Assembly: GCA_964513145.1 (NCBI GenBank) | Contig: CAZELK010000006.1 | Coordinates: forward strand, 2,051-66,050 | Origin: Candidatus Woesearchaeota archaeon | GTDB lineage: Archaea; Nanobdellota; Nanobdellia; SCGC-AAA011-G17; JACPIM01 | Length of the DNA stretch: 64,000 nt | Reading direction: 5' to 3' | Shown: one piece after another, positions 3,086 through 47,802 of the stretch | Layout: the number at the start of each line of letters is the position of its first letter | Position numbering within the stretch: the stretch's first letter is position 1 | Position numbers and translations under genes: made by a program | Notes under the pieces: model-generated | Databases searched by the model: none | Told to the model about the DNA's origin: nothing | What the model saw: the letters and a program-made list of their open reading frames with translations, nothing else

Positions 3086-3143
3086 TTCAAAAAAATTTAA
3101 AACTAGGAAACTTTATAAATATATTTTAGGGAAGAAATATTAA

Positions 3144-3245
3144 GCCCGGGTAGCTCAGACTTTTCCTATATTTAGGAATTGGAGCAACAGGTAGAGCGCA
3201 TGGCTGTTAACCATGAAGTCGGTGGTTCGAGTCCTCCCCTGGGCG
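3144..3245 (+). tRNA. tRNA-Asn (anticodon GTT) with a ~29-nt intron in the D-loop
   Basis: Acceptor stem GCCCGGG/CCTGGGC. D stem GCTC...GAGC is interrupted by ttttcctatatttaggaattggagcaaca. Anticodon arm CATGG-CTGTTAA-CCATG, anticodon GTT. T arm GGTGG-TTCGAGT-CCTCC. Mature length is ~73 nt. Confidence 0.7.
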
Positions 3246-3302: not shown

Positions 3303-4250
3303 TTATTTGGAATTCTTATTTAACTTATAAACTTTATAGAAACTTACAAGACCTATGATAATCAATATAGTTGCAATTAATATTATATCATTTTGCCTTA
3401 TCCTATAATTAAATATTGTTATGTCAAATATTAAGAATTCAGAAATTAATTTAATTGTCTTTCTTGGAACAAATTCATAAAAACTACCTAAACCCAATGA
3501 TATAATGCCTAATATTAACCATAAAACTTTATTTATTTTTGGGTTGCTATAATTTTCTAGTTTATATGTAATAATAAAATAATAGATAATATTTGAAATT
3601 ATAAAAGCTGAAACAGCGTGAATTAAATCACTTGAAAATAAAAATATCACGATTGCTGCAATTAAACCAAATATAAGACCAGAATATCTCTTTTTAAAAA
3701 ATATAAGACTTATAAGTGATGCAATTACAAAGGCTAAAATTGATGGCGTAATTAAATTAAAAGTCATTAATGCTGCGGCTTCTTCCTCACCAATTCCTTG
3801 CAACTTAAATCTTGATATAATAAAAATTGCATCTAAGGCTAGAGAAGCAAAACTAGCTAAAATAACAAAACTTATTTTCTTTAACCACTCCTCGGCTTTA
3901 ACCAATTTTAAAGCAGAAAAATATGCTATTAACATGAAAAACGAATGCATGAAAAAGAACCAAAACTGTTCATCAACACGAAATAATTCCCTGTTAATAG
4001 TTGGGTTTGCAAATAAATAATAAATATAAAAAATAAATGGGCCAGAAATGCTTGTTACTATTCCTTCTTCTTTTCCTTTGCCTATAAATTGCGCTATTAA
4101 AAATACTGTTAGAAATATAAGTGTTAATTTTATTGCAACATAATTAAGATGAACAGCCCAATCAGTTGCCAAATGATAAGCAATGTCTAAACCATTCATA
4201 ACCAGAGTTATTAATATAGAAAAAATAATGTTTGAATATAATTTATTCAT
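3303..4250 (-). CDS. polytopic integral membrane protein, function unknown
   Basis: 315 aa, roughly 9 hydrophobic segments. No catalytic motif recognised. Confidence 0.55.
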   Translation of the reverse strand: MNKLYSNIIFSILITLVMNGLDIAYHLATDWAVHLNYVAIKLTLIFLTVFLIAQFIGKGKEEGIVTSISGPFIFYIYYLFANPTINRELFRVDEQFWFFFMHSFFMLIAYFSALKLVKAEEWLKKISFVILASFASLALDAIFIISRFKLQGIGEEEAAALMTFNLITPSILAFVIASLISLIFFKKRYSGLIFGLIAAIVIFLFSSDLIHAVSAFIISNIIYYFIITYKLENYSNPKINKVLWLILGIISLGLGSFYEFVPRKTIKLISEFLIFDITIFNYRIRQNDIILIATILIIIGLVSFYKVYKLNKNSK

Positions 4251-4251
4251 T

Positions 4252-4656
4252 TTACTCTATAATTATTGAGCCTTTCATTGATGTGTGAATACCACATATA
4301 TAATCTACTTTACCTGGCTTGTCAAATGTAAAAGAAACAGTATCTCCTGTTTGTAGTTCATCTGATGTTAATGAGCCATCCACAGATTCAACTGTATGAG
4401 TTGCGCTGTCTTCATTTCTCCATGTAACTGTTGTACCTGGCTTAATACGAAGCTCATTTGGCACAAATTTAAAACCTTTTATTATAACTTGCGCATTATC
4501 TCCACCAGCACTTACTCCTTTTGTGTCGCCTTTTTTCTCGACATCAACTGGCTGAGAAATTTGCTCTTGAGTATTTGGTTGATCAGAACTTTTGCAGCCA
4601 GATATTAAGATGGCTGACACTAAGAGAATAATTAAAACTAAAAATATCTTTTTCAT
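4252..4656 (-). CDS. Blue-copper (cupredoxin, plastocyanin/amicyanin-like) lipoprotein
   Basis: Signal peptide plus lipobox LISGC. Type-1 Cu ligands H (SATHTVE) and C-x2-H-x2-M (YICGIHTSMKG). Confidence 0.75.
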   Translation of the reverse strand: MKKIFLVLIILLVSAILISGCKSSDQPNTQEQISQPVDVEKKGDTKGVSAGGDNAQVIIKGFKFVPNELRIKPGTTVTWRNEDSATHTVESVDGSLTSDELQTGDTVSFTFDKPGKVDYICGIHTSMKGSIIIE

Positions 4657-4691
4657 AAATGACTTTTTATATTTTAAATATATAAATCTTT

Positions 4692-5054
4692 TTAATTTTG
4701 GCTTTGACGCAATTCAACTTTATATTCCAAGACTTCGCCAAAATCGCGGCCCTTTAAAATATTAATCTTTTCTACAGCTTCTCTTGAATTTCTTTTTCTC
4801 TGTTCTACAAAAGACTCAAAAATAAGCCTGTCTCTTCCAGATAAATTTGAAAATAACCCCCTATTTATATAATCCAAGAATGATAAGTATGCTGCATTAA
4901 TTGGTGTTAAACCTGGCTGGGCAACAATATTAGTTGAATATAAAACTATTTCTGAACCGTTTATATCTGCACAGATGTGTGTATTATATACTTCTGTTTC
5001 TGCAAGAGAAACTTCTATTTTTGCCTCAAACTTTTGCGTCTTTGGTTTTGCCAT
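4692..5054 (-). CDS. hypothetical protein (120 aa)
   Basis: ORF in the track, no overlaps. No recognised motif. Confidence 0.5.
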   Translation of the reverse strand: MAKPKTQKFEAKIEVSLAETEVYNTHICADINGSEIVLYSTNIVAQPGLTPINAAYLSFLDYINRGLFSNLSGRDRLIFESFVEQRKRNSREAVEKINILKGRDFGEVLEYKVELRQSQN

Positions 5055-5254
5055 AAAATAACCAAATGCAATAGTTTTTTATATCTATCCCTTTAAATTA
5101 TTACAATTATTGTACCTTTCATTTCTTGGTGAATACTGCAATGATAATAATATTTTCCTAGCTTATAAAAATAGTTTAATATAAAAAAATAAGCAGTCTT
5201 AATTGATACAACTTAAACAAAGTTTTTTTATAGTGCTAATTTATACTTAATATT

Positions 5255-5995
5255 ATGTTTGTAAATAATATAGATCCAGTATTATTTAAAATCGGATTTT
5301 TTGAAATAAGATATTATGGATTAGTTTATCTTCTTGGATTTTTACTTGTTTTTTACACTTTAAAGAAAAATAAAAAGGAATTAAATTTAACTGATGATAA
5401 TATTTATGATTTACTTTTATATTTATTCTTTGGCGTTATTTTTGGTGCGAGATTATTTTATTTTATTTTTGATGAGCCCTTTACATTAATTAATGAACCA
5501 TTAGAATTTTTTAAAATATGGCATGGGGGCATGAGTTTTTTTGGCAGCTTAATCGGAGTCTTATTATCCGGGTTTTTTTACTGCAAAAGAAAGCAAATTG
5601 ATTTTTTTAAACTTGGCGATTATTTAGTTATTCCAACCACGATTGCCTTAATTTTTGGCAGAATTGCAAATTTTATTAACGGGGAAATTGTCGGCACAGT
5701 TACAAATTTACCTTGGTGTGTCTTGTTTGAAGGTTATTCTGACTGCAGGCACCCTTATCAAATTTATGCTTCTTTTTCCCATTTTATTTTATTGTTAATT
5801 TTATTTAGAACTAGAAAAATAAAAACTAAAAACGGAGTTTTGTTAATTAACTTTATTATTTTTTATTCTGTTTTAAGAGTTATCACTGATTTCTTTAGAG
5901 ATGAGCCAAAATTTTTTGGCTTAACAATATGGCAGTTATTTAGCATAGTATTTGCAATAATTGGTTTAATAGTTTATAAGAGAATCAAAAAATAA
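5255..5995 (+). CDS. lgt: Prolipoprotein diacylglyceryl transferase (bacterial-type Lgt)
   Basis: 246 aa, multi-TM. Lgt signature GRIANFINGEIVG (compare GRIGNFINGEL) plus the conserved H/W/Y pattern. Lipobox proteins occur elsewhere in the window. Confidence 0.7.
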   Translation: MFVNNIDPVLFKIGFFEIRYYGLVYLLGFLLVFYTLKKNKKELNLTDDNIYDLLLYLFFGVIFGARLFYFIFDEPFTLINEPLEFFKIWHGGMSFFGSLIGVLLSGFFYCKRKQIDFFKLGDYLVIPTTIALIFGRIANFINGEIVGTVTNLPWCVLFEGYSDCRHPYQIYASFSHFILLLILFRTRKIKTKNGVLLINFIIFYSVLRVITDFFRDEPKFFGLTIWQLFSIVFAIIGLIVYKRIKK

Positions 5996-6266
5996 AATTC
6001 TGAACCCTGACTAAAGACTCTAAAAGACCGACTTTATCTGAACCTAGTTCATCTACAGCTTGCTCTGATATGGTTAATGAATAAAATATACACTTACAGC
6101 GATTTTCTTGAAAAATTTTGTTTATTTCTCTTTTTAATTCTTCATAAGAGATGTGGATAGTAAGGGCTTTACTTGCTTCTCTACTCTCGCCTTTAATAAG
6201 ACCAGTGATTTTTCCCAATGTATAATTAGTTCTTGGTTCATAATCAATTTTAAGTTCCATTGTCAT
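5985..6266 (-). CDS. hypothetical protein (93 aa)
   Basis: ORF in the track. Divergent from gatC with a shared promoter region. Confidence 0.4.
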   Translation of the reverse strand: MTMELKIDYEPRTNYTLGKITGLIKGESREASKALTIHISYEELKREINKIFQENRCKCIFYSLTISEQAVDELGSDKVGLLESLVRVQNFIF

Positions 6267-6349
6267 GCTAATCCGATTTATGGCTTATTTATATTATTTT
6301 CTGTTTAGGATAAGATTTTAATACCCCTTGCAATTAATTTAAAACTAAT

Positions 6350-6634
6350 ATGAAGATCGATAGAGAGCTTATAGAAAAAGTAGCCAAAATATCCAGATTA
6401 AATTTAAAAGACGAAGAGAAAGAACAATTTATTAAAGATTTTAAAGACATAATTGATACTCTCTCCAAATTAAACAAAATTAATACTGACAATGTTGAGT
6501 TAAGTGTCCAACCTGTTAGAGTTGAAAATGTTTTTCGAGAAGATAATATAGAAAAAAGTTTAGATGAAAAAGAAATATTTCTAAATGCCAAGCACAAAGA
6601 AAAAGGATTTTTTAAAGGACCAAAGATTTTATGA
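6350..6634 (+). CDS. gatC: Asp/Glu-tRNA amidotransferase subunit C
   Basis: 94 aa. First gene of gatC-gatA-gatB, overlapping gatA by 4 nt. Typical GatC N-terminus (..VAKISRLNLKDEEKEQF..). Confidence 0.75.
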   Translation: MKIDRELIEKVAKISRLNLKDEEKEQFIKDFKDIIDTLSKLNKINTDNVELSVQPVRVENVFREDNIEKSLDEKEIFLNAKHKEKGFFKGPKIL

Positions 6635-7953
6635 AAACTGAAGAAGCTATAAATGAAGCAAGAGAATTAAATAAAAAATATAATTTCTTTATTACAATTA
6701 ATGAGAATCTTTTTAATGAAAAAGCTTTGCCAAAAAATGAAACTAAGATTATTTCTGTTAAAGATAATATTTGCACAAAGGGATTAAGAACAACAGCGGG
6801 ATCTAAAATTTTAGAAGATTATTATCCTGTTTTTGATGCGACTGTAATTGAACTGGCAGGGAAAAAAGGATATTCTATAATTGGAAAAACTAGCATGGAT
6901 GAGTTTGGTTTTGGAAGTTTTTCTACAAATTGCGCTTATGAAATACCAAAAAACCCCTTGGATGAAACTAAAACTTGTGGGGGTAGTTCTGGTGGCGGGG
7001 CTGGTTATACTTATGCCAGCAAATTTAGTGCTGCTTCTATAGCTGAAAGCACTGGGGGGAGCATATCTTGTCCAGCTGCATTTTGCAGTGTTGTTGGGAT
7101 TACACCAACATACGGGTTAATTTCCAGACATGGATTAATTGATTATGCCAATTCCCTAGATAAAATTGGTGTTTTTGGCAAATCTGTAAATGATAGTGTC
7201 AGACTATTAAATTCTATTTCTGGTTTTGATGAAAAAGACAGTACCTCTATTAATAAGGAAAAAGAAAATTATGAAAATTATCTTGGAAAAGATTGCAAAA
7301 AATTAAAAATAGGAATTATAAAAGAATTTTGTTCTGGATTAAATAAAAATGTTGAAAAAGAATTTTGGAATGGGGTGAAAAAGTTAGAGGACAACGGCAT
7401 AAAAACCAAAGAAGTTTCTTTTAAATCCAGTGATTTGTGTTTAAGCACTTATTATATTATAGCAATGTGTGAAGCGTCTACAAATTTAGCTAAATATTGC
7501 GGCATAAGATATGGCATGAGCAAAGAATTGAAAGGAACTTTTAATGAATATTTTTCTTCAATAAGAGAAGAATTTTTAGGAAAAGAAGCCAAGAGAAGAA
7601 TTTTATTAGGCACTTTTATGAGGATGGCTGGATATAGGGAAGCTTATTATATTAAGGCTTTAAAATTAAGAACTTTGATTACGCAGGAATTTAAAAAATT
7701 ATTCAAAGAATTTGATGTTTTGTTAACTCCAACAATGCCAATATTACCACCAAAGTTTTCGGATATAAAAAAATTAACTCCTTTAGAAAATTATATGAGT
7801 GATGTTTTAACTGTTGGACCGAATTTGTGCGGTTTCCCAATGATTTCAGTACCTGTATTAAAAAATAAACCAGTTGGTTTGCATTTTATTGCAGATCATT
7901 TGCAGGAAAATAAAATAATAAGCATTGGAGATTTTTATGAAAGAGTCAGATAA
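6631..7953 (+). CDS. gatA: Asp/Glu-tRNA amidotransferase subunit A (amidase signature family)
   Basis: 440 aa. Amidase signature GGSSGGGAG and Ser-cisSer-Lys context. Confidence 0.9.
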   Translation: MKTEEAINEARELNKKYNFFITINENLFNEKALPKNETKIISVKDNICTKGLRTTAGSKILEDYYPVFDATVIELAGKKGYSIIGKTSMDEFGFGSFSTNCAYEIPKNPLDETKTCGGSSGGGAGYTYASKFSAASIAESTGGSISCPAAFCSVVGITPTYGLISRHGLIDYANSLDKIGVFGKSVNDSVRLLNSISGFDEKDSTSINKEKENYENYLGKDCKKLKIGIIKEFCSGLNKNVEKEFWNGVKKLEDNGIKTKEVSFKSSDLCLSTYYIIAMCEASTNLAKYCGIRYGMSKELKGTFNEYFSSIREEFLGKEAKRRILLGTFMRMAGYREAYYIKALKLRTLITQEFKKLFKEFDVLLTPTMPILPPKFSDIKKLTPLENYMSDVLTVGPNLCGFPMISVPVLKNKPVGLHFIADHLQENKIISIGDFYERVR

Positions 7954-9328
7954 TGCTAAAATAGGCTTAGAAATTCATTTGCAATTATATTTAAAGAGCA
8001 AGCTATTTTGCGGATGTTCGAGTGATTCCAGCAAACCCAATTCATCCTTATGTCCACTTTGTTTGGGACATCCTGGAAGCAAGCCAGTAATCAATAACAA
8101 AGCAATTGAATTAGGAATTAAATTGGGATTGGCTTTAAATTGTACAATAAATAAAGAAAATTACTTTTCAAGAAAAACTTATTTTTACCCAGACATGAGC
8201 AAAAATTATCAAATAACACAATATGAATATCCTTTATGCATAAATGGACATGTCAGATTTAAAGATAAAATAATCAGAATAAAGAGAATTCATTTGGAAG
8301 AGGATCCGGCTTCTATACAATATCCAAAAACTATTTCTGATTCTGAATATTGCTTAATTGATTATAACAGATCTGGGGTTGCTTTATGTGAAATTGTTAC
8401 AGAACCTGATTTAACTTCTGCTCAAGAAGCCAGGGAATTTCTAGAACAATTAGCAACTATAATTGATTACCTAGAAATTTATGACTCTAAAAAATTTACA
8501 ACAAGGGTTGATGCTAATGTTTCATTGCCAGGAACAAAAAGGGTTGAGATAAAAAATATTACTGGATTTAAAGCTGTAGAAAAGGCAATCGGGTTTGAAA
8601 TTTTAAGGCAGAAAGGCAAATTAAGAAGAAATGAAGAATTTAAACAAGAAACAATGCATTATGATTCTTTTAGCAATAAAGTAATCCCATTAAGAGAAAA
8701 AGAATTTGAAGAAGATTATGGATATATTTTTGATCCTGACTTGCCGAAGATTGTTGTTGAAGAAAAATTAATCAAAAAAATTAAAGAAACTATACCAGAA
8801 CTACCAACTGAGAAAATTGAAAGATTAATTGAAAAATATAAAATTAGTGCAAATACAGCCAGTATTCTGGCTTCTGAAAGAGAAATTTGCGACTTGTTCG
8901 AAGAAAGTGTTAAAAAAATTGACAAAGAACTAGCTATAAATTTTATTACAGTTACATTAAAGAAAGTCCTTAATTATAATAATTTGAAATTAAAAGACAG
9001 CAAATTGACTTTGGATAATTTTATTAATTTATTAAAATTAATTGGAAAAAAAGATTTAACATCAAGGATGGGTGATTTATTGCTGAGAAGACTTGTTTTG
9101 AGCAATAAAAATACTGATGAATTAATTAAAGAACTAGGTTTTAAAAAAATAGAGAATTTTGACAAGGCTGTTGATACTATATTGATCAAAAATAAAAAAT
9201 CTGTTGAAGATTATAAAATGGGAAATTCCAAGGCTTTACATTTCTTAATCGGACAAATTTTAAGGGAATTAAAAGACAAAGCAGACCCAAAAAGCATTGA
9301 GAAAAAAATATTAGAAAAAATAAAATAA
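7925..9328 (+). CDS. gatB: Asp/Glu-tRNA amidotransferase subunit B
   Basis: 467 aa. N-terminal GLEIHLQL...KLFCGC. GatB-type cradle (..DYNRSGVALCEIVTEPD..). C-terminal YqeY-like tail. The start could instead be the internal Met at 7937. Confidence 0.85.
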   Translation: MEIFMKESDNAKIGLEIHLQLYLKSKLFCGCSSDSSKPNSSLCPLCLGHPGSKPVINNKAIELGIKLGLALNCTINKENYFSRKTYFYPDMSKNYQITQYEYPLCINGHVRFKDKIIRIKRIHLEEDPASIQYPKTISDSEYCLIDYNRSGVALCEIVTEPDLTSAQEAREFLEQLATIIDYLEIYDSKKFTTRVDANVSLPGTKRVEIKNITGFKAVEKAIGFEILRQKGKLRRNEEFKQETMHYDSFSNKVIPLREKEFEEDYGYIFDPDLPKIVVEEKLIKKIKETIPELPTEKIERLIEKYKISANTASILASEREICDLFEESVKKIDKELAINFITVTLKKVLNYNNLKLKDSKLTLDNFINLLKLIGKKDLTSRMGDLLLRRLVLSNKNTDELIKELGFKKIENFDKAVDTILIKNKKSVEDYKMGNSKALHFLIGQILRELKDKADPKSIEKKILEKIK

Positions 9329-9331
9329 AAA

Positions 9332-9550
9332 TTACCTTCGTTTAGAAGGTTTTTCCATACCCATACATGCCTGACATTCTGGGCAGTGGCACATTGCTAC
9401 TGATCCGAATCCAATTAGCAAAAATAAAACTGACCACCACTGGATATTCCAAAAAGTCCATACATTAAGGTCTTTTAATAAAAATAAGACACCAACAACT
9501 AAAAATAGAACACCACATAGCTTTCTACATTTTTTACATCCCATCATCAT
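9332..9550 (-). CDS. small membrane protein with Cys cluster (72 aa), hypothetical
   Basis: Two TM helices plus the motif CHCPECQAC. Confidence 0.35.
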   Translation of the reverse strand: MMMGCKKCRKLCGVLFLVVGVLFLLKDLNVWTFWNIQWWSVLFLLIGFGSVAMCHCPECQACMGMEKPSKRR

Positions 9551-9568
9551 TTTACATATCCTCCTTTT

Positions 9569-10099
9569 TTAAATTATACTAGCTTTTTTTATTACTACAT
9601 CAGTTAAAGGTTTATCGCTTGTGTCTCTTTTTGCATTACTTATTTTGTCAACAACATCCATACCTTCAACTACTTTACCGAATACTGGATGTTTTGCATC
9701 TAAGAAATTATTATCAACTGTATTTATAAAAAATTGACTGCCACCAGTATTAGGACCTGCATTTGCCATTGATATAGTACCACGATTATTTTTATTATTT
9801 TTTGTAAATTCATCCTTTATTACATACCCTGGACCGCCTCTTCCTGTTCCAGTTGGATCACCGCCCTGAATCATGAAGTTCGGAATAACCCTATGAAAAA
9901 TAACTCCGTCATAGAATTTTGAATTAACTAATTTTTTGAAATTATCAGATGTAATTGGCATTGTATTTTCAAATAATTCTATCTTTATATTACCAACAGA
10001 TGTTTCCAATAATACTATGCTGTTCATTTTATTTTCTGTTTTAGGTGTACAACCAGTTATTAAAAATAACATTAATAAGATTACTACCTCTTTCCGCAT
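9569..10099 (-). CDS. Cyclophilin-type peptidyl-prolyl cis-trans isomerase, lipoprotein
   Basis: Cyclophilin motifs (FHRVIPNFMIQGGDP, GTISMANAGPNTGGSQFFI). The likely start is MRKEVVILLMLFLITGC (lipobox LITGC). The track ORF extends 37 codons further upstream to 10210. Confidence 0.8.
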   Translation of the reverse strand: MRKEVVILLMLFLITGCTPKTENKMNSIVLLETSVGNIKIELFENTMPITSDNFKKLVNSKFYDGVIFHRVIPNFMIQGGDPTGTGRGGPGYVIKDEFTKNNKNNRGTISMANAGPNTGGSQFFINTVDNNFLDAKHPVFGKVVEGMDVVDKISNAKRDTSDKPLTDVVIKKASII

Positions 10100-10175
10100 T
10101 TTACTTATAATACTTGTCATATTTATATAACTTTCTAAGTGATAAATTTTTAAATGTAAAATATGTCTTATTATC

Positions 10176-10457
10176 ATGGTTAGATATAAACAAAGATGCA
10201 TGCGCTGCAAAAATAATATGGTTATTGTAACCCAGAATACAAAATTTCCTTTGTGCTACGACTGCCAAAAAGACGAACTGCATAAAGATATAAAAGACCC
10301 CAAAATGAAAAAGATGTTTGAAATACCTGAGGACTTTTATAAAAATAATGCGTTTTTAAGATCAATAAAAATCAATTACATCAGATTTGGAAAATTATCA
10401 GACAAACAAATAGAATGGTTTAATAAAACTGTAGATGGATTGAAGAAAGATAAATAA
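10176..10457 (+). CDS. zinc-ribbon protein (CxxC...CxxC), hypothetical
   Basis: 93 aa with CMRC...CYDC. Confidence 0.4.
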   Translation: MVRYKQRCMRCKNNMVIVTQNTKFPLCYDCQKDELHKDIKDPKMKKMFEIPEDFYKNNAFLRSIKINYIRFGKLSDKQIEWFNKTVDGLKKDK

Positions 10458-13154: not shown

Positions 13155-14579
13155 TTATTTTAATAATTTTTTTAATAAATCAGAAAGTTTTTTTCCGTCA
13201 ATTGAGCCTCTAAATGTTTTCATTGCTTCGCCCATTAAAGCTGAAAATGAAGCTCCTTTATTTTTAATTATTAATTCTTTTAATTTTATTTCTACTTCTT
13301 TTACATTAATTTGTTTATATTTATTTAAATCAATGTGCTTGCCTTGGGCTAAGTCCAATAATATCTCTTTTGCAGCTTCTCTTGTTATTCTTTTTTCTTG
13401 GAGATTTTTAAAAATAAACTCAAAATCTTTTTGTGATAATTTTTCTGGGCTGACATTAAATCTTCTTCTTATTTCTTTTGGATATTCAACCAATAACTCA
13501 GCCATCAAACTTGGATTTAGACAGTATTTTTCAGAATAATAGTCAAAAGGTATGCTTTCTTCCAAAATTTCTCTTGCAAGCTGTTCGTTTATTTTATATT
13601 TTTTCTCGAAATTTATTGCTCTTTCTGTTAGTAATTCTGGTATTTCAATTTGAGACAATAACTCTTTTGTTATTCTTATTAGAACTATATCTGTCTCAAC
13701 ATACATTCTGGAGCCTGTTGGCATTGGTCTTAAAAATGTTGATGTGAAATCCGGCTCAACTTTTCTAACTTCTGCTTTTAATTCTTTTTTATTTTTTATA
13801 TTTTCTAATTGCCTATTTATTTCATTTTCTATTGTTTTTGGAATTCCTCTTAAATCCTGAAAACCTTTTAATTCTACTCTTGGATGGTCTTTAATACTTA
13901 CATTCACATCCTGTCTTATTGAACCCAATCCAGATTTAAATTTTCCTGTTGATTTTAATATCATCCCCAAATATTCAGCAATTTCTTTTGCATGTTCGGG
14001 ATCTTTTATACTTGAATCTGTTGCTATTTCTATTAATGGAATTCCTAGTCTGTCTAAATTATAAATAACTGATTTTTCATCTTGTTTTATTTTTTTAGCC
14101 GCTTCTTCTTCTAAACAAATTGTGGGAATTTTTACTTCCCCTTTTGAAGTTTTTATAGAACCATTAATTGCGATTAAAGTAGTTCTTTGGAAACCAGAAA
14201 TATTAGAACCGTCAACTATAACCTTTCTCATTATTTGAATTTCATCAATTATTTTTGCATTTGTTAAAATAGCAACCTGTAAAGCAACTTTTAGTGCTTC
14301 TTTATTTAATTTTTCGGGCGGGGATTCGTCCAAATCAACTAAACAAGTTGTGTCTTTATTAATTTCATATATAAAGATTTTATCTTTTTGTGTTTCATAT
14401 AAAGCAGCTATATCTATTCCCCCTAATTCTCCGGCAGAAGCTTTTAATTTTCTTTTAATTGTATGGTCTACTTTTTCTGTATTTGTCAAAGAAGGACATT
14501 CACAAAATAATTTATGAGTTTCAATCTGCCTGTGAATTTCTAGACCAATACGTAAACCTAATTCTTTATAATTTAGCAT
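13155..14579 (-). CDS. gatE: Glu-tRNA(Gln) amidotransferase subunit E, compact form
   Basis: 474 aa. GLEIHRQI..KLFCEC and the GatE-specific VDGSNISGFQRTTLIAINGSI. It is ~150 aa shorter than typical GatE (~620 aa); the AspRS-like insertion domain appears absent or reduced. Confidence 0.75.
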   Translation of the reverse strand: MLNYKELGLRIGLEIHRQIETHKLFCECPSLTNTEKVDHTIKRKLKASAGELGGIDIAALYETQKDKIFIYEINKDTTCLVDLDESPPEKLNKEALKVALQVAILTNAKIIDEIQIMRKVIVDGSNISGFQRTTLIAINGSIKTSKGEVKIPTICLEEEAAKKIKQDEKSVIYNLDRLGIPLIEIATDSSIKDPEHAKEIAEYLGMILKSTGKFKSGLGSIRQDVNVSIKDHPRVELKGFQDLRGIPKTIENEINRQLENIKNKKELKAEVRKVEPDFTSTFLRPMPTGSRMYVETDIVLIRITKELLSQIEIPELLTERAINFEKKYKINEQLAREILEESIPFDYYSEKYCLNPSLMAELLVEYPKEIRRRFNVSPEKLSQKDFEFIFKNLQEKRITREAAKEILLDLAQGKHIDLNKYKQINVKEVEIKLKELIIKNKGASFSALMGEAMKTFRGSIDGKKLSDLLKKLLK

Positions 14580-15054
14580 TTTTTACTTTATTACTTAATC
14601 TATCCCATTTCATAGTATCTTTTTCAAAAAAAGATAATGCTTTTACTAAGTTCTTTTTATTTAAAGATTTTGATATGCAAATCCATCGACCATAATTATC
14701 TAATTTTATTTTTTTCATTGGTAATAGTTTAGATAATATCTCATGACATCCCCTGATTATTTTTTTACTTTTACACGAAACTTGTATATTTCTTGTTTTT
14801 CTAAGTACATGCCCTTCAAAAGTCATAAAGCCACATAAAAAGGCAATTCGAAATTTTAAATTTGAATTTTTAATCAATTTTGGTTCTGTTACAGTATACG
14901 TTTTCTCACCTAAAGGAAAGCCCAAAAATTTATTTAAGTATCTAACAACAATTTTATTATCTAAATCAATTCTAAAGGCTTTCTTTTTCTTACATTTCTT
15001 TAATTTCGATTTTATTCCAAATATATGAAAAATCCAACCTTGAAGTTTTAGCAT
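14566..15054 (-). CDS. LAGLIDADG-like (single-motif) homing-endonuclease-like protein
   Basis: 162 aa, very basic. Carries RIAFLCGFMTFEGHV, which resembles LAGFIDGDG. Confidence 0.4.
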   Translation of the reverse strand: MLKLQGWIFHIFGIKSKLKKCKKKKAFRIDLDNKIVVRYLNKFLGFPLGEKTYTVTEPKLIKNSNLKFRIAFLCGFMTFEGHVLRKTRNIQVSCKSKKIIRGCHEILSKLLPMKKIKLDNYGRWICISKSLNKKNLVKALSFFEKDTMKWDRLSNKVKNAKL

Positions 15055-15164
15055 TGAACTCTCATACGCTTCTGTAATATTTATAGCGTTGGATATTGTT
15101 AAAGTAATTTGTTTATTTTCTCTAAATTTATATAGTTCTTTAGGAATAATTGATATTGTATTTT

Positions 15165-15722
15165 TTAGTGTGTATTTTTTAGTCTAATTCTTAAAGCCTT
15201 TTTTGTTTTAAATATTTTAAATTCGTAATTATTATTTTTTAAAATTTTAATTAAATCTTCTTTAATTTTTGAATCTTTAATTTCTATTCCTATCCTATTA
15301 CATATATTGCCGTCTGCTGCATGCGCTCCACAAATTTTCGCTAGATCTATATTAATAGTTTTAACAGCTTTTATTGGTTTCGACTTATTACTATTACATT
15401 TAATATATTCAACATTTTCATTTATTAAATTAAAGTATTTGGGAGCTTTACATAAGGATATGACCATTTCAAATAAGGGAATTGGAATCCATTCGCGATC
15501 ATTATAAATTATTTCTTCAATTGGTCCTAAACTACATTTTAATCTATTCTTAATAATTCTAGATAACTCCTTCTTTGATAATTGCTTTTCTTCTATTATT
15601 TGGTTGAATAAACCCATAAAACTCTTTCTTAAATTCTTTCCCTTAAAACAAATCCAACTTTTTGGCGAGATATCTACTTTTTTATCATGAAGTTTAAATA
15701 AATCAAATTTATTTTTAGACAT
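15165..15722 (-). CDS. LAGLIDADG-like (single-motif) homing-endonuclease-like protein
   Basis: 185 aa with LAKICGAHAADGNI. Adjacent to and co-directional with 14566..15054. Confidence 0.4.
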   Translation of the reverse strand: MSKNKFDLFKLHDKKVDISPKSWICFKGKNLRKSFMGLFNQIIEEKQLSKKELSRIIKNRLKCSLGPIEEIIYNDREWIPIPLFEMVISLCKAPKYFNLINENVEYIKCNSNKSKPIKAVKTINIDLAKICGAHAADGNICNRIGIEIKDSKIKEDLIKILKNNNYEFKIFKTKKALRIRLKNTH

Positions 15723-15944
15723 TTAATAATGGTAGGTAAGTTATTATATAAACTGCAGGCTGGTCTTTGTCTTGTCTAGTAGTTTTGTCCTGTTGTTAAA
15801 ATGTTGTTATAAGCCTTATAAATCAATTTTAGTCCGAAAGATTTTTGGTTGTCTTGTATTAATTTTCGGAGAAGTCGGAAATTTTACGAAATTAATAGTT
15901 CTAGAACACAAATCTTTTTATATTAATCTTATCACGAATAATTT

Positions 15945-16235
15945 ATGGGTGGGGGTACAGGTGATTGCGAACTTGGAGATTCTGAGTTAAAGGAAGTTTA
16001 TAGTTTAGAATTTTTAACAACTATTGATGGGGAAGAATTTACAAGGAAGCAAATTGGCTTTTCAAAGGAGAAGTTTGTTGTTTTAAATGTACATGGCTCC
16101 AGATGTGAACATAAAGAGGTTCAAATAGGTCCTGATTTATATGCTTTATTTAAGGAACAAGCTTTAAAAGGAAGTTATAGGTCTGCAAAAGAGTTTTGTG
16201 CAGGCTTAGAAAAATCTCCTGAGAAAATTTATTAA
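15945..16235 (+). CDS. hypothetical protein (96 aa)
   Basis: ORF in the track. Convergent with gatD (stop overlap). Confidence 0.35.
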   Translation: MGGGTGDCELGDSELKEVYSLEFLTTIDGEEFTRKQIGFSKEKFVVLNVHGSRCEHKEVQIGPDLYALFKEQALKGSYRSAKEFCAGLEKSPEKIY

Positions 16236-17515
16236 TTTATTTCTGTTCTTTTTGATATTTCGCCATGTAAATTTTCATGAAATAATTCCTTAACTTTATT
16301 TTTAGGATAATTGCTTAAAAGCCAGGCTATTTTTATAAAAGCAGTTTCTGTTAATATATCCAGTAAATTTCCTATTACTCCTGCTTCCTGCAATAAACGA
16401 CCTGTAGAATAAACATTCATATTTATTCTACCGTAAATTGTTTGGGAGGTAGCTATTACAGGAATTTTTTTAGCTAATTTTTTTATTTCATTGTATATTT
16501 TTTTATTTTCTTTTGTGTATTTGTCAATTTCATTTATTGGAAAATTACCTGCAAGACCAAAACCTTCCAATATTAGCGCATCAAAATTTCTGTAATTAGA
16601 TATCTCTTTTGAAATCATATTTGGGTGTGATTTAAGAATGCCTATTTTCAATTTAGAATTAAATAGATTTAATTTTAAAGATTTATTTTCTTTTTTAACA
16701 TGCGGCTTTAAGAATGTAATATTGCCTTTTGAACTAATTCTTGCAATTGGCGAATCATTAACAACTTTAAAGGCATCTCTTGATGACGTGTGCATTTTTC
16801 TTGTTTTTAATGACGGCATTATCAAGCAGTTATCATCATTTGTTGATTCGTGCATGCAAATTGCAACGCCCTGAAAATCTGTTTTTGCTATAAAATTCGC
16901 TGCAGATATCAAATTTAATGCTGCATCAGTACTACCCCTGTCTGAGCTTCTTTGAGAACCTACCAAAATTACCGGGACATTTAAATTTTCCAGAATAAAT
17001 GTTAATGATGCTGATGTGAAGGCTAATGTGTCTGTGCCATGAGTTATTATTATGCCGTCAACCCCTTCTTTTATTTCCTTTTCAATTTCCTTTGCTATAA
17101 TATTATAGTGATTAAAATTCATGTCTTCTGAGAACATGCTGCTGATTAACCTTGATTTTATATTTGCTATTTTTTGAAGCTCGGGAAACATTGCAATGAT
17201 TTCTTCTGGGGTAAATTTTGATATTACACCCCCAGTTTCATAAGAAACCCTGCTTGAGATTGTTCCACCAGTATGAAGAATAGAAATTGTTTTTAGTTCT
17301 TTTTTAAATTGGATCTTTTGCTGTTCCTGATTTTTCTCTTCAAATTTCTTTATTAATTTTATAGATTTAATATTCTTTTTTAGAATTCCAATATTATACC
17401 CTGAAGACAACTTTATTACAATAATTTCCTTATTTTCTGATGGAACAAATGCCCCATTTAATACCCCTTTATTTGTGCTGATCTCTATTAAGTCGCCCAA
17501 ATTAAAATTCTGCAT
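16232..17515 (-). CDS. gatD: Glu-tRNA(Gln) amidotransferase subunit D (asparaginase-like)
   Basis: 427 aa. Asparaginase motifs HTGGTI and THGTDT, with the GatD N-terminal domain. Confidence 0.85.
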   Translation of the reverse strand: MQNFNLGDLIEISTNKGVLNGAFVPSENKEIIVIKLSSGYNIGILKKNIKSIKLIKKFEEKNQEQQKIQFKKELKTISILHTGGTISSRVSYETGGVISKFTPEEIIAMFPELQKIANIKSRLISSMFSEDMNFNHYNIIAKEIEKEIKEGVDGIIITHGTDTLAFTSASLTFILENLNVPVILVGSQRSSDRGSTDAALNLISAANFIAKTDFQGVAICMHESTNDDNCLIMPSLKTRKMHTSSRDAFKVVNDSPIARISSKGNITFLKPHVKKENKSLKLNLFNSKLKIGILKSHPNMISKEISNYRNFDALILEGFGLAGNFPINEIDKYTKENKKIYNEIKKLAKKIPVIATSQTIYGRINMNVYSTGRLLQEAGVIGNLLDILTETAFIKIAWLLSNYPKNKVKELFHENLHGEISKRTEIN

Positions 17516-28923: not shown

Positions 28924-29991
28924 ATGTTAAGAATTTTAAAGAAGTTTGAAGTAAAAAGATTAGAAGTTTTAAATAAAGAAGGAAAGTATGATAAAAAATT
29001 AATGCCTAAGCTTAATAATAAAGACATAAAAAAGATTTATGAAGCAATGATTCTTACAAGAGTTTTTGATAGGAAAGCATTAAATTTACAGAGGCAGGGG
29101 AGATTAGGAACATATGCATCTATGGAGGGACAAGAGGCAACTATTATTGGTTCTGCTTATGCTTTAAAAAAAGAAGATTGGTTATTTCCTTGCTTTAGAG
29201 AAAATGGTGCCTTAATATTAAGAGGTCAATCAATGGAAGATTTGTTTCTTTATTGGGGCGGAGATGAAAGGGGAATGAATATTCCAAAAGATGTTAATAA
29301 CTTTCCAATAGCAATTCCAGTAGGCACACAAATATTACATGCTGTTGGTGTTGCTTTGGGAGCTAAAATACAAAATAAGAAAATATGCAGCTTAGTATAT
29401 TTTGGTGATGGTGCGACTTCAGAAGGAGATTTTCATGAAGGTCTGAACATGGCAGGAGTATTTAAATTACCTGTTGTTTTTATCTGCCAGAATAACCAGT
29501 GGGCAATTTCTGTACCATTAAAAAAACAAACTGCTTCTGAAACATTAGCACAAAAAGCGATAGCTTATGGTTTTAATGGCATACAAGTTGATGGAAATGA
29601 TGTGCTTGCTGTTTACAAAGCAACCAAAGAGGCTTTGGACAATGCAAGAAATGGGAATGGGCCGACTTTAATTGAATGCCAAACTTATAGAATAAATGAT
29701 CACACAACTTCTGATGATTCTAAAAAATACAGGAATGAAAAAGAAGTTACTGAATGGAAAAAGAAAGACCCGATAATAAGATTATGGAATTTCATGAAAA
29801 GAAAAAAACTGTGGAACAAAAAATATGAGCAGAAAATAATTGAAAAATCTACCAAAGATGTTGAGGCTGCTGTTAAAAAAGCTGAGTCAACACCAAAACC
29901 AAAAGTTGAAGACATGTTCAAATATGTTTACAGCAATATAACTCCAATACAAAAAGAAGAATTAGAATCTTTTAGGAAAAATGAAAACTAA
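28924..29991 (+). CDS. pdhA: Pyruvate/2-oxoacid dehydrogenase E1 component alpha subunit (TPP-binding)
   Basis: 355 aa. TPP motif GDGATSEGDFHEGLN...N. Confidence 0.85.
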   Translation: MLRILKKFEVKRLEVLNKEGKYDKKLMPKLNNKDIKKIYEAMILTRVFDRKALNLQRQGRLGTYASMEGQEATIIGSAYALKKEDWLFPCFRENGALILRGQSMEDLFLYWGGDERGMNIPKDVNNFPIAIPVGTQILHAVGVALGAKIQNKKICSLVYFGDGATSEGDFHEGLNMAGVFKLPVVFICQNNQWAISVPLKKQTASETLAQKAIAYGFNGIQVDGNDVLAVYKATKEALDNARNGNGPTLIECQTYRINDHTTSDDSKKYRNEKEVTEWKKKDPIIRLWNFMKRKKLWNKKYEQKIIEKSTKDVEAAVKKAESTPKPKVEDMFKYVYSNITPIQKEELESFRKNEN

Positions 29992-30967
29992 AATGGCTAA
30001 ATTAAATTTAGTAGAAGCAATAAACCTAGGATTAAAACAAGAAATGAAAAGAGACAAAAATGTAGTCATTTTGGGAGAAGATGTTGGCAAAGACGGCGGG
30101 GTTTTTAGAGTTACAGATAATTTACAAAAAATTTTTGGTGAAAAAAGAGTTTTTGACACACCTTTATGTGAATCTGGTATTGTCGGGGCTTCAATAGGCA
30201 TGGCTGTTTTTGGATTAAAACCTGTTTGCGAGATTCAATTTGATGGTTTTATTATGCCTGCTATTGATCAAATAATAACTCATGCAGCAAGAATCAGAAA
30301 CAGATCAAGGGGCAGATTTAAAGCTCCAATTGTTATAAGATGTCCTCATGGTGGTGGAATTAAGGCTCTGGAACATCATTCTGATTGTCCCGAGGTTTTA
30401 TTTGCCCATATACCCGGACTAAAAGTTGTTATACCTTCAACACCTTATGATGCAAAGGGATTAATTGCAAGTGCTATTAGAAGTGATGATCCAGTGATAT
30501 TTTTTGAACCTAAAAAAGTTTATAGGGCTATTAAAGAAGAAGTTCCTGAAAAAGAATATGTTATTCCAATAGGAAAAGCAAAAATTGTTCAAGAAGGAAA
30601 TGACATAACAATAATATCTTATGGTGCAATTATACATAAAGTAAAAGAAGCTGCAGATAAATTAAATGAAATCAGCTGCGAAATCATAGACTTAAGAACA
30701 TTAAGTCCATTAGATGAAGAAACAATTATTGATAGTGTGAAAAAAACTGGAAGAGCTTTGATTGTTCATGAAGCGCCAAAAATGTTTGGTGTTGGTGCAG
30801 AGATAAGCGCATTAATAAATCAAAAGGATTTATTGAGCCTGGAAGCACCTATAGAAAGAGTTGCTGGTTATGATGTTGTTGTTCCTTTGCCAAAATTAGA
30901 GGACTATCATATTCCGAATGTCGAAAGGATTATTAATGGAATAAAAAAAGTTGTTAACTTTGAATGA
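29981..30967 (+). CDS. pdhB: Pyruvate/2-oxoacid dehydrogenase E1 component beta subunit
   Basis: 328 aa, transketolase-like Pyr/C-terminal domains. Overlaps pdhA by 11 nt. Confidence 0.85.
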   Translation: MKTKMAKLNLVEAINLGLKQEMKRDKNVVILGEDVGKDGGVFRVTDNLQKIFGEKRVFDTPLCESGIVGASIGMAVFGLKPVCEIQFDGFIMPAIDQIITHAARIRNRSRGRFKAPIVIRCPHGGGIKALEHHSDCPEVLFAHIPGLKVVIPSTPYDAKGLIASAIRSDDPVIFFEPKKVYRAIKEEVPEKEYVIPIGKAKIVQEGNDITIISYGAIIHKVKEAADKLNEISCEIIDLRTLSPLDEETIIDSVKKTGRALIVHEAPKMFGVGAEISALINQKDLLSLEAPIERVAGYDVVVPLPKLEDYHIPNVERIINGIKKVVNFE

Positions 30968-30973
30968 GGTATC

Positions 30974-31867
30974 ATGAGTTTGGAATTAAGAATTATTGAA
31001 CCTGGGAAAAAAAATGGTGCATTTAACACTGCTTTAGATATGGCTCTTTTAGAATTAGTTGGAAATAATGAAAGCAAACCAACTATTGTACTTTCTGACT
31101 GGGAACCAACTGTTTCTTTAGGCAATTCTCAAAATTATTTTTTAGATGCTGATGAAGAAGCTTGCAGAAGACGCGGTGTTCAGATTGTAAGACGAAAGTC
31201 CGGCGGACAAGCTGTTTTTTTAGATGATAATTATTTTGTATTTTCAGTTATTGCCAAACCAAATATGTTCCCAAAAGACCTCACTATTTTAAGAAAATGG
31301 TTTTGCAATTTAGTTATTGAAATGCTTACTGATTATAATATCCCTGCTGAGTTTTATCAACCAGATAATATAGTTATAAAAGATGGTAATAGGTTTAGAA
31401 CATTGGGCAATTCCGGGCAAATTATTACTAACAAAGCAATTGTTGTACATGGATCTATAAGATATTCTTTAAAAAATCTTGATATAATGACTGATGTTTT
31501 AAAAGTAAATGGTCAAAAATTACATCAGTTTAAAGATGAAATTGAGAATATTCTCGCTGATGTTGAAAGATATAAATGCAAAATTGACTTAAAGCAAGCT
31601 TTCTTAGATCATTTCTCAAGCAAATACCAAGCTAATTTTCTTAGGGGTGAATTAAGCTTAACTGAAAAAAATAAAACAAATAAAATTGCAGATGATTTAA
31701 TTAAAAATGTTTCTGGAGAAATAAATTATAAATCCAGGGGTGTATGTTACTTTTTCTTAAATGGACAAAATTTAGTCCCTTCTCTTCAAAAATTTTTACC
31801 TGAAAATAAACCAAGTGAATGGCTTGATTCAGTTATCCAGCTTGAGGAAAGTGTAAATGGCATTTGA
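30974..31867 (+). CDS. lplA: Lipoate-protein ligase
   Basis: 297 aa. RRKSGGQAVFLD matches the LplA/LipB BPL_LPL motif. Embedded inside the PDH operon. Confidence 0.8.
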   Translation: MSLELRIIEPGKKNGAFNTALDMALLELVGNNESKPTIVLSDWEPTVSLGNSQNYFLDADEEACRRRGVQIVRRKSGGQAVFLDDNYFVFSVIAKPNMFPKDLTILRKWFCNLVIEMLTDYNIPAEFYQPDNIVIKDGNRFRTLGNSGQIITNKAIVVHGSIRYSLKNLDIMTDVLKVNGQKLHQFKDEIENILADVERYKCKIDLKQAFLDHFSSKYQANFLRGELSLTEKNKTNKIADDLIKNVSGEINYKSRGVCYFFLNGQNLVPSLQKFLPENKPSEWLDSVIQLEESVNGI

Positions 31868-33110
31868 ATTTAAATTTCCCGATGTAGGCGAGGGAATTCA
31901 TGAGGGAGAAATAGTTAAATGGCTTGTTAAAGAGGGAGATTCTGTAAAAGAAGATCAGCCATTATTAGAAGTGCAAACAGACAAGGCAATTGTCCAAATT
32001 CCAAGCCCAAAAACCGGGACTATATTAAAAATAAATTTTAAAACAGGCAACACTGTTAAAGTTGGCGAGGTTCTAATTGTAATTGGGGTGAAAGGTGAAC
32101 AAAATTCAAAGACAAAAGGTTTTGCAGTTGTCGGGAAATTAGAGGAAGCCAAAGATGAAGAGGCTTTGCCAAAACAAACTTTTAGGAAATTTGAGCAAAA
32201 CAAAAACACTGGAAAAGTTTTAGCCACACCAAAAGTCAGGGCTTTGGCTAAAAGATTAGGTGTTGATATTAACTTAATAAAAGGAACTGGAAAAAACGGG
32301 ATTATTTTTGATGATGATATAATAAACTTCAGCAAGAAACCGCTTTCTGAGAAAGTTTTACCTAAAACTGATAAACAAGGAATTAAAATAACAAAGAAAT
32401 ATGATTTTTACGGTTATGTTGACAGAGTGCCATTAAAAGGTCTGAGAAAAATTATTGCAGAGAATATGGTTAAATCAATTACAAAAGCAGTTCATGTTAC
32501 TCACATGGATTTTGCTGATGTTACTTATTTAACTGGTATTAGAGAAAGAGAAAAAATAAAGCTGCAGAAAAATGGAATAAAATTAACTTATTTACCTTTT
32601 ATTATCAAGGCAGCCATATCTGCTTTGAAAGAACACCCATATTTAAATTCTACATTAGATGAAGAAAATCAAGAGATTATCTTAAAAAAATATTATAATA
32701 TCGGAATAGCTGTTGATACTGAAGACGGCTTAATAGTTCCTGTAATTAAAAGGGCTGAAACAAAAGAAATTTCAGAACTTGCAAAAGATATTTCTAATTT
32801 AAGTAATCTAGCTAAAGAAAGAAAAATTGATTTAAGTGATCTAAAAGGCGGAACATTTACTATTACAAATATTGGCAGTATTGGTGGAACTTATGCAACG
32901 CCAATTATTAATTATCCTGAAAGTGCGATACTGGCTTTAGGCAGAATTCAAGACAATGCTTTAGTTATTAATAATAAAATACAAATTAGGAAAATATTGC
33001 CTTTTTCATTATCATTTGATCATAGAATTTTGGATGGTGCTGAAGCGGCAAAATTTGCCAACAAAGTTAAATCTCTTTTAGAAGACCCAGACTCTTTATT
33101 AAAATCTTAA
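31857..33110 (+). CDS. pdhC: Dihydrolipoamide acyltransferase (E2) of 2-oxoacid dehydrogenase complex
   Basis: 417 aa. Lipoyl domain (EVQTDKAIVQIPSP), E3-binding linker, and catalytic SFDHRILDGA. Confidence 0.85.
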   Translation: MAFEFKFPDVGEGIHEGEIVKWLVKEGDSVKEDQPLLEVQTDKAIVQIPSPKTGTILKINFKTGNTVKVGEVLIVIGVKGEQNSKTKGFAVVGKLEEAKDEEALPKQTFRKFEQNKNTGKVLATPKVRALAKRLGVDINLIKGTGKNGIIFDDDIINFSKKPLSEKVLPKTDKQGIKITKKYDFYGYVDRVPLKGLRKIIAENMVKSITKAVHVTHMDFADVTYLTGIREREKIKLQKNGIKLTYLPFIIKAAISALKEHPYLNSTLDEENQEIILKKYYNIGIAVDTEDGLIVPVIKRAETKEISELAKDISNLSNLAKERKIDLSDLKGGTFTITNIGSIGGTYATPIINYPESAILALGRIQDNALVINNKIQIRKILPFSLSFDHRILDGAEAAKFANKVKSLLEDPDSLLKS

Positions 33111-43494: not shown

Positions 43495-43504
43495 ATTTAT
43501 TCCC

Positions 43505-43945
43505 CTACAAACATACCTTATTTTTATCAATTACATTAAATATTTCTCCGCGGTATATTTTAATTACTCTTCTCAATGCTTCCAAACCTAAACAAGCACA
43601 TTTAACTCTTACTGGGCTAATCGGGATACTTAAAAGTTCGTAAACTTTTTCTTTTGTTATCCTTTCTGCTTCTTCTATTGTTTTCCCCTTTATTTCAGAA
43701 AGTAACATAGATGAGGCAGCCATACTTATTGCACAACCTTTCCCAAAAAATCTTATGTCTTTTATATAGTCACTTTCTATTTTAATTTGTACAGTTTCTT
43801 CATCCCCACACAATGGATTGAATTCCCTATGCTGAGCATCGAAATTTTCCAATTTACCAAATTGTCTTGGGTGTGTATAATGATCCAGAATATTCTCTCT
43901 GTAAATGCCTTCGCCAGCATAATTTTTATCAATTATTTCTGTCAT
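43505..43945 (-). CDS. sufU: SufU/IscU-type Fe-S scaffold (NifU N-terminal domain)
   Basis: 146 aa. Conserved Cys in LCGDEETV, GCAISMAAS and VKCACLG. Confidence 0.8.
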   Translation of the reverse strand: MTEIIDKNYAGEGIYRENILDHYTHPRQFGKLENFDAQHREFNPLCGDEETVQIKIESDYIKDIRFFGKGCAISMAASSMLLSEIKGKTIEEAERITKEKVYELLSIPISPVRVKCACLGLEALRRVIKIYRGEIFNVIDKNKVCL

Positions 43946-45173: not shown

Positions 45174-45174
45174 T

Positions 45175-46359: not shown

Positions 46360-46390
46360 TTTAACCTTTTTTGTGAAAAAAACTTTTTAT

Positions 46391-47800: not shown

Positions 47801-47802
47801 TT

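Follow-up and report, generated by a model that had tools for sequence, protein, structure and literature searches.

A bacterial-type Lgt homolog encoded beside predicted lipobox substrates in a Woesearchaeota genome, and the archaeal Lgt clade to which it belongs

Lipoproteins carrying a lipobox are established in Haloferax, where they are lipidated by AliA and AliB (arCOG02177 and arCOG02178, Haloferax volcanii), and the family profile of bacterial Lgt, PF01790, is only marginally similar to arCOG02177 (Hong et al., PMC12462473). The same study (2025) predicted lipoproteins to be abundant in DPANN archaea, found some lipoprotein-rich archaeal genomes without AliA and AliB and inferred further lipidation pathways (PMC12462473). 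Halocyanin of Natronomonas pharaonis is cited there as the first archaeal protein reported to carry a diphytanylglyceryl-Cys anchor. The Lgt enzyme family itself is well known. Archaea have been stated to have no Lgt in papers from 2018, 2025 and 2026, and this absence has been used as an argument that archaeal lipids require a different enzyme; the picture rests on the RefSeq and arCOG genome sets, in which few DPANN metagenome-assembled genomes (MAGs) are included. Here, a stretch of 64,000 nucleotides from a Candidatus Woesearchaeota archaeon (assembly GCA_964513145.1, contig CAZELK010000006.1, positions 2,051 to 66,050 of the forward strand; referred to as the window) was analysed, which encodes an Lgt homolog close to two lipobox proteins, a cupredoxin and a cyclophilin. 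An initial annotation had treated Lgt-dependent lipoproteins as a bacterial trait and the locus as part of a horizontally acquired lipoprotein pathway. Lipobox lipoproteins as such are not confined to bacteria, being established in Haloferax and predicted to be common in DPANN archaea (PMC12462473). The unexpected element is the bacterial-type enzyme and not its lipobox substrates.

The enzyme and its signature are located as follows.
5255..5995, plus strand: lgt, prolipoprotein diacylglyceryl transferase homolog of 246 residues, member of the DPANN Lgt clade (PF01790 and TIGR00544).
5657..5695, plus strand: Lgt signature G135-R-I-A-N139-F-I-N-G-E144-I-V-G147, aligned to 5AZB.

In profile hidden Markov model searches, the open reading frame (ORF) scored 205 bits against PF01790 (cut-off 24.9), with positions 1-238 of the 240 profile positions covered, and 158.2 bits against the equivalog model TIGR00544 (cut-off 118.9). 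E. coli Lgt (PDB 5AZB) matched the protein with E=7e-33. A structural model was generated with AlphaFold2 from an alignment of 38 homologs (pLDDT 90.7, pTM 0.88), and a fold search returned 5AZB as its sole significant PDB match (E=3.8e-13, TMq 0.77). The modelled protein has the bacterial Lgt fold, with a body of seven transmembrane (TM) helices, arms and a shortened head. The GRIANFINGE stretch from which a clear Lgt homolog had initially been recognised comprises residues 135-144 (bases 5657-5686). The counterparts of the signature residues in E. coli are G142, R143, N146, E151 and G154, the position of E. coli G145 is occupied by Ala, and the R, N, E and G of the signature are invariant across the 38 archaeal homologs. 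The PF01790 threshold had been set beforehand as the refutation test for this assignment and was exceeded, and ORF 5255-5995 is confirmed, at the level of profile and alignment, as a genuine full-length Lgt.

Residues that are essential or conserved in E. coli Lgt, and their roles, were taken from a published study (mBio 2026, PMC13251419) and located in the window protein. Y26 corresponds to Y21, G98/G99 to G91/G92, G104 to G97, D129 to D122, G142/R143 to G135/R136, N146 to N139, E151 to E144, G154 to G147, Y235 to Y204, R239 to R208 and R246 to R215. All of these positions are invariant or nearly so in the 38 archaeal homologs, at an overall identity of 45-69%. Such a pattern of conservation indicates purifying selection on an active enzyme and an apparently functional window Lgt. 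With bacterial Lgt (5AZB/5AZC), the protein shares the full-length profile match, the 7-TM body with an N-terminal beta-arm, the motif GRxxNFxNxExxG, the equivalents of Y26, R143, N146, G154, R239, Y235 and R246, and lipobox substrates encoded nearby. It differs in its archaeal host, whose membrane presumably consists of ether lipids of the opposite glycerol chirality, in a clade-specific Cys pair, and in its length, its head and two residues that are weighed below. The Cys pair, C155 and C164 ('WC...CRHP'), is nearly invariant and typical of the archaeal clade; bacteria usually carry 'PRHP' where the archaeal sequences have 'CRHP'. The use of 'CRHP' as a clean marker of the clade was rejected, since named Woesearchaeota and Nanoarchaeota sequences also show FRHP and other variants. 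At two divergent loci of the Woesearchaeota type (L086, 8241-9314; L170, 8799-9959), a membrane-anchored thiol reductase of the GILT family with a CxxC motif is encoded directly upstream of lgt. These reductases may be related to the Cys pair in the head region of archaeal Lgt.

The archaeal nature of the genome, as initially proposed, was borne out by markers scoring above curated cut-offs within the window, including gatE_arch (468 bits, cut-off 319), gatD_arch (414 bits, cut-off 324), RLI/ABCE1 (728 bits, cut-off 469), aspS_nondisc (503 bits, cut-off 368) and the archaellin/type IV pilin N-terminal domain (39.5 bits, cut-off 20), the last of which occurs in a row of such proteins. Further archaeal features of the window are genes for PriS, TrmB and an ATP-dependent DNA ligase, and an intron-bearing tRNA-Asn. 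The GC content is uniform, at about 29%, across the window, and the GC content at third codon positions (GC3) of lgt is 0.215, within the range of 0.15-0.23 found for housekeeping genes. Two independent Logan assemblies, derived from different sequencing runs, contain the same gene order of membrane protein, cupredoxin, lgt, gatCAB and cyclophilin. Because of the archaeal markers, the uniform composition and the agreement of the two assemblies, chimerism or contamination at the lgt locus is very unlikely.

The distribution of the enzyme was examined at several depths. In a collection of 5.8 billion proteins, the best 120 matches were 45-100% identical to the window Lgt, and all source-named sequences among them were assigned to Candidatus Woesearchaeota, Nanoarchaeota or 'archaeon'. 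GTDB species representatives were also scanned, by means of two peptide patterns and with a corresponding bias; the nine best Lgt loci among the matches listed were archaeal MAGs (37-48% identity), followed by Lgt proteins from Desulfobacterota, Nitrospirota and Alphaproteobacteria (33-41% identity). Distant members of the clade also stand in archaeal context, with PolB and PyrI at one locus and, at another, on a contig of 288 kb from Woesearchaeota, with Sec61beta, NAC, ribosomal protein S2 and RNase P p30. One archaeal-clade Lgt (L007, CAYXZV010000009.1), 41% identical to the window protein, lies on a contig of 33.6% GC labelled 'uncultured Methanosarcinales archaeon'. This label is probably a binning or labelling error of a DPANN contig; otherwise it would hint at a clade that reaches beyond DPANN.

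A neighbour-joining (NJ) tree was calculated from 249 trimmed columns for 47 archaeal and 71 bacterial sequences together with E. coli Lgt as the outgroup, whose sequence agrees with the 5AZB alignment segments. The 47 archaeal proteins were monophyletic with respect to the 72 bacterial ones (bootstrap 95/100), and mean distances amounted to 0.89 within the archaeal clade, 0.81 among the sampled bacteria and 1.35 between the groups. For a second, larger NJ tree, 1.84 billion representatives at 50% identity were searched with a profile. The clade defined by 48 known archaeal Lgt proteins then took in 109 of the top 140 representatives and none of the known bacterial sequences; at 50% identity, it comprises at least about 100 clusters. 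In spot checks, two members without 'CRHP' were from Woesearchaeota and Nanoarchaeota, and outsiders with 'PRHP' from Rickettsiales and Desulfurellales. Both trees are unrooted, distance-based and biased in their bacterial sampling. We conclude from these sequence comparisons that archaeal Lgt represents an old, diverse, archaea-associated lineage and not a recent import. The proposed horizontal acquisition thus finds no sign of a recent event, which is disfavoured because the GC3 of lgt matches that of housekeeping genes and because the archaeal clade is monophyletic and diverse. If the gene was transferred at all, the transfer was ancient and affected the whole clade. An ancient transfer from bacteria is tentatively favoured over vertical inheritance as the origin of the clade, because DPANN genomes carry many bacterial genes (PMC8407392). 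The phylogeny suggested for finding the donor recovered the archaeal clade and identified no donor lineage; Desulfobacterota, Nitrospirota and Alphaproteobacteria were considered as the nearest bacteria among the matches listed, and similarity at 33-41% identity does not single out a donor among them.

The lipobox proteins of the locus are encoded on the opposite strand.
4252..4656, minus strand: type-1 copper cupredoxin (amicyanin/halocyanin-like), 134 residues, predicted Lgt substrate (PF13473, PF00127).
4594..4608, minus strand: cupredoxin lipobox L17-I-S-G-C21, read directly from the sequence.
9569..10099, minus strand: cyclophilin-type peptidyl-prolyl isomerase, 176 residues, with signal peptide and lipobox, predicted Lgt substrate (PF00160).
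10049..10063, minus strand: cyclophilin lipobox L13-I-T-G-C17, read directly from the sequence.

The N-terminus of the cupredoxin, MKKIFLVLIILLVSAILISG|C, consists of a Sec signal peptide followed by Cys21. The protein scored 46.6 bits against PF13473 (cut-off 27) and 38.6 bits against PF00127 (cut-off 21.2) and fell below the NCBIfam equivalog cut-offs for amicyanin and halocyanin. Its type-1 copper ligands H87, C121, H124 and M127 are in place, with the spacing C-x2-H-x2-M. Among its database homologs, the lipobox is kept in 33 of 36 and the C-x2-H-x2-M copper site in 35 of 36, while signal peptides and linkers diverge; a variable linker rich in Ser, Gln and Pro follows the lipobox. The distance of about 600 bp from lgt given in the initial annotation was accurate, with 599 bp between the two start codons and the genes in divergent orientation. 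The cupredoxin resembles halocyanin as a small type-1 copper protein whose N-terminus has a lipobox, with a flexible linker behind Cys+1, and a lipid-anchored cupredoxin has an archaeal precedent because halocyanin is reported to carry such an anchor. The match to the halocyanin model TIGR03102 is weak (39.8 bits, equivalog cut-off 93.8). The two further differ in that the signal peptide is of the Sec type, whereas haloarchaea favour export by twin-arginine translocation (Tat), and in that the host belongs to the DPANN archaea, with Lgt as the enzyme encoded next to the cupredoxin.

The cyclophilin was likewise present as described, with 181.6 bits against PF00160, and its start was revised. 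The mechanically called ORF spans 9569-10210, and the start consistent with homologs is the ATG at 10099, from which the N-terminus reads MRKEVVILLMLFLITG|C. Orthologs retain the lipobox as LIAG|C in L083 and FITG|C in L169. The families of both proteins support their proposed extracytoplasmic location.

Lipoboxes were searched for in the window by testing each start codon of the six reading frames against a PROSITE-style rule with signal-peptide criteria. The rule required K/R near the N-terminus, an uncharged h-region, the motif [LIVMFWSTAG]2-[LIVMFYSTAGCQ]-[AGS]-C and a Cys at residue 14-36. The sole matches were the cupredoxin, with LISG|C, and the cyclophilin, with LITG|C. First-order Markov random sequences gave a mean of 0.21 matches, with two or more in 1% of trials, so the two observed motifs exceed chance expectation. 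Conservation in homologs is stronger evidence for the lipoboxes than this comparison with random sequences. A third candidate, ORF 50287-50940 (minus strand, 217 residues), was not counted as a lipoprotein, as it fails the rule and has no family match. It carries a twin-arginine-like NRREFF (Tat-like RREFF) followed by '...IVIGKNYGC GSSSSSQ' and resembles a Tat lipoprotein with a non-canonical lipobox (N and Y at -3 and -2).

Relatives preserve the association of Lgt with lipobox proteins, both in the cupredoxin and cyclophilin orthologs and in the arrangement of the genes. In five loci, no more than 600 bp separate lgt from a lipobox cupredoxin gene, namely in the window and L083, L169, L008 and L011, in which Lgt is 60%, 59%, 40% and 37% identical to the window protein, respectively; L169 (GCA_016185635.1), L008 and L011 are named Woesearchaeota. 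In L008, the lipobox cupredoxin follows lgt directly on the same strand. In L011, a cupredoxin domain without copper ligands forms the C-terminal part of a 314-residue lipobox protein encoded directly downstream of lgt. Across 23 archaeal-type loci, including several whose length does not suffice to reveal the neighbours of lgt, the pairing takes at least three independent gene arrangements. L093 and L094 have other lipobox ORFs at a distance of up to 1.3 kb from lgt. A cupredoxin-like ORF downstream of lgt in L089 was not counted, as it has neither a lipobox nor copper ligands. The window locus shares with AliA/AliB the predicted thioether lipidation of the lipobox Cys of exported archaeal proteins and the presence of lipoprotein genes in the neighbourhood.

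As far as gene content and conservation can tell, the source of the window is probably a DPANN archaeon of low GC content and Woesearchaeota/Nanoarchaeota type with a long-resident, apparently functional chromosomal Lgt, whose substrates would be the lipobox proteins. Several points weigh against this reading. The residue proposed as catalytic base in E. coli, H103 of the H103-GGL motif, is F96 in the window Lgt, D stands in place of E. coli E243, and the head domain on the periplasmic side is far shorter (246 residues in total vs 291 in E. coli). Most sequences of the archaeal clade are metagenomic and carry no taxon label. Lsp was not matched by phmmer or by three Lsp motifs in the six-frame window and nine archaeal loci (about 170 kb), with E. 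coli LspA as the phmmer query and the searched DNA making up a few percent of any genome. Finally, activity on the mirror-image lipids of archaea has to be assumed: the substrate of bacterial Lgt is sn-1,2-diacyl phosphatidylglycerol, and archaeal lipids are sn-2,3 ethers with a mirror-image glycerol backbone. As to the first point, the column equivalent to H103 contains F, H or Y across the archaeal clade, and Firmicutes, Actinobacteria and other bacteria are reported to have Y, W or F at the position (PMC13251419), so that it is not strictly defining for membership in the Lgt family. No Lnt-like ORF was present among the annotated ORFs of at least 400 residues in the window. Of the lipoprotein pathway envisaged in the initial annotation, only Lgt was seen, within the small share of the genome that the window and the related loci represent.

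The course of lipidation can be inferred by analogy with the established mechanism of Lgt. The cupredoxin, the cyclophilin and other lipobox proteins would be exported via Sec, and Lgt would attach the glyceryl-lipid part of an anionic phospholipid with a glycerol headgroup to the thiol of Cys+1 through a thioether bond. Some peptidase would then cut off the signal peptide, after which the copper redox protein and the folding catalyst would remain anchored on the outside of the single membrane. The lipid donor would be either archaetidylglycerol, an archaeal ether lipid of the opposite glycerol stereochemistry, or an ester phosphatidylglycerol derived from a host. Woesearchaeota are commonly regarded as lipid scavengers without lipid synthesis.

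The lipobox proteins might instead be lipidated by an AliA-type system, with Lgt being redundant, narrow in its substrates or engaged in another lipid transfer. AliA (arCOG02177) does occur in DPANN archaea 'with some gaps' (PMC12462473), the view of the host genome is limited to 64 kb, and H103 is unconserved in archaeal Lgt. We nevertheless regard this alternative as unlikely: the other catalytic residues are strongly conserved across a deep clade, lgt repeatedly adjoins lipobox genes, and the lipoprotein-rich archaeal genomes without AliA or AliB need another enzyme (Hong et al.). An artefact, in which a bacterial lgt was misjoined to or misbinned with an archaeal contig, could be suspected from the fact that archaeal Lgt entries stem almost entirely from MAGs and that one match bears the label 'Methanosarcinales', probably in error. 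With archaeal markers on both sides of lgt within the 64 kb, uniform composition, the same gene order in two independent read sets and recurrence of the arrangement in several Woesearchaeota genomes whose assemblies are separate, with contigs reaching 288 kb, its probability is close to nil.

The remaining alternatives concern the origin of the gene. Recent horizontal transfer of a complete bacterial Lgt-Lsp(-Lnt) pathway into the host genome would agree with the otherwise universal presence of Lgt in bacteria, with the many cross-domain transfers known in DPANN genomes (PMC8407392) and with a nearest non-archaeal Lgt, among the matches listed, of proteobacterial, Desulfobacterota or Nitrospirota type at 33-41% identity. 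It is highly improbable in view of a GC3 indistinguishable from that of housekeeping genes, closest 120 homologs that are apparently all archaeal, a monophyletic archaeal clade as diverse as the sampled bacteria (0.89 vs 0.81), synteny that is kept among genomes at 57-60% Lgt identity, and the fact that no Lsp or Lnt was found nearby (in the window and related loci). At the other extreme, Lgt might be a vertical relic of an archaeal or universal ancestor, retained in part of DPANN, with AliA derived from it elsewhere. Hong et al. proposed that AliA possibly arose from the Lgt family (PMC12462473), and the archaeal clade is deep, monophyletic and not nested in any sampled bacterial group. However, named sequences come only from genomes of the Woesearchaeota/Nanoarchaeota type, the identity of 33-41% to proteobacterial-type Lgt corresponds to the typical spread among bacterial Lgts, the NJ trees are unrooted with biased bacterial sampling, and DPANN genomes are rich in bacterial imports (PMC8407392); such descent is therefore distinctly unlikely.

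On the minus strand, running away from lgt, a 120-residue ORF, the cupredoxin and a 315-residue membrane protein follow each other. Downstream of lgt lie gatC, gatA and gatB, and then, on the minus strand, a 72-residue membrane protein and the cyclophilin. The additional neighbours are the following.
3303..4250, minus strand: polytopic membrane protein, 315 residues, directly downstream of the cupredoxin in the same orientation.
4692..5054, minus strand: 120-residue ORF between lgt and the cupredoxin, status uncertain, called as a gene in two Logan assemblies.
9332..9550, minus strand: Cys-rich small membrane protein, 72 residues, with a LiaI/LiaF-like TM region, downstream of the cyclophilin (PF18917).

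The 315-residue protein has no Pfam or NCBIfam match. Its family comprises about 80 homologs, in long (about 315 residues) and short (about 242 residues) forms, and all named members are hypothetical proteins of Woesearchaeota. Homologs adjoin the cupredoxin at L083 (8564-9511) and L169 (400-1344). N18, D21, H25, H33, Y36 and K40 are invariant in the family, as are R86, D92, E93, Q94, H101 and E154. An AlphaFold2 model was confident (pLDDT 91.4), yet without a PDB fold match. The protein was considered as a diverged Lgt- or AliA-like enzyme and rejected as such (hhalign probability of 1.5% against Lgt, no PDB fold match). It might function in copper handling, as a redox partner of the cupredoxin or in lipoprotein processing. 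The 120-residue ORF has no Pfam or NCBIfam match and no homolog in related loci. The 72-residue protein scored 28.9 bits against PF18917 (cut-off 27) and has homologs in L083 and L090.

Further features of the window concern the host. Both GatDE (13155-17515, minus strand) and GatCAB (6350-9328, plus strand) amidotransferases are encoded. GatE is short (474 residues vs a model of 622 positions) and matched in two stretches, and two unassigned ORFs, 14566-15054 and 15165-15722, stand between GatE and GatD. The asparaginyl-tRNA synthetase (AsnRS) co-occurs with a non-discriminating aspartyl-tRNA synthetase. Its gene (857-2149) lies about 1 kb from a tRNA-Asn(GTT) (about 3143-3245, plus strand) whose D-arm is interrupted by some 24-33 inserted nt, which is not a canonical site for an intron; Rfam matches only the 3' part (30.2 bits), and ARAGORN recognises the tRNA after removal of the insert. 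A T2SSE/PilB-type ATPase gene (2011 residues, from about 61060 to beyond 64000, plus strand; L168, 4548-10583), with Intein_splicing and LAGLIDADG_3 listed three times among its Pfam matches, stands at the end of a cluster with five or more archaeal pilin-like genes (52550-59094) and is followed by two T2SSF genes. Extension of the contig past one end of the window added pilus-assembly genes only. Judged by N-terminal sequence only, an apparent 2-oxoacid dehydrogenase operon (E1 alpha, E1 beta, lipoate-protein ligase-like, E2) occupies 28924-33110 (plus strand) and an apparent full Suf operon for Fe-S assembly 42748-48972 (minus strand). For a DPANN genome of small size, the two putative operons would amount to rather rich metabolic equipment.

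In the literature searched, no mention of Lgt in Woesearchaeota or DPANN was found. The archaeal enzyme is new to that literature and not to databases, as the NCBI annotation pipeline already names such proteins. The clade corrects the stated distribution of Lgt and provides a concrete lipidation candidate for archaea without AliA/AliB; it is an obvious candidate for an extra pathway because lipoprotein-rich archaea of this kind exist. We tentatively suggest, as one possibility, that the Woesearchaeota/Nanoarchaeota clade constitutes the additional pathway of Hong et al., in which a bacterial-type Lgt would work in an archaeal membrane and join either archaeol, taken from archaetidylglycerol, or a lipid scavenged from the host to lipobox cysteines. 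If this were true, the Lgt active site would accept the opposite glycerol stereochemistry, and the clade would be an extant intermediate for the evolutionary connection that has been proposed between Lgt and AliA. The finding raises the testable question of whether the Lgt fold acts on sn-glycerol-1-phosphate ether lipids or on bacterial-type phospholipids in lipid-scavenging symbionts, and it identifies lipid-anchored blue-copper proteins and foldases as predicted surface equipment of Woesearchaeota.

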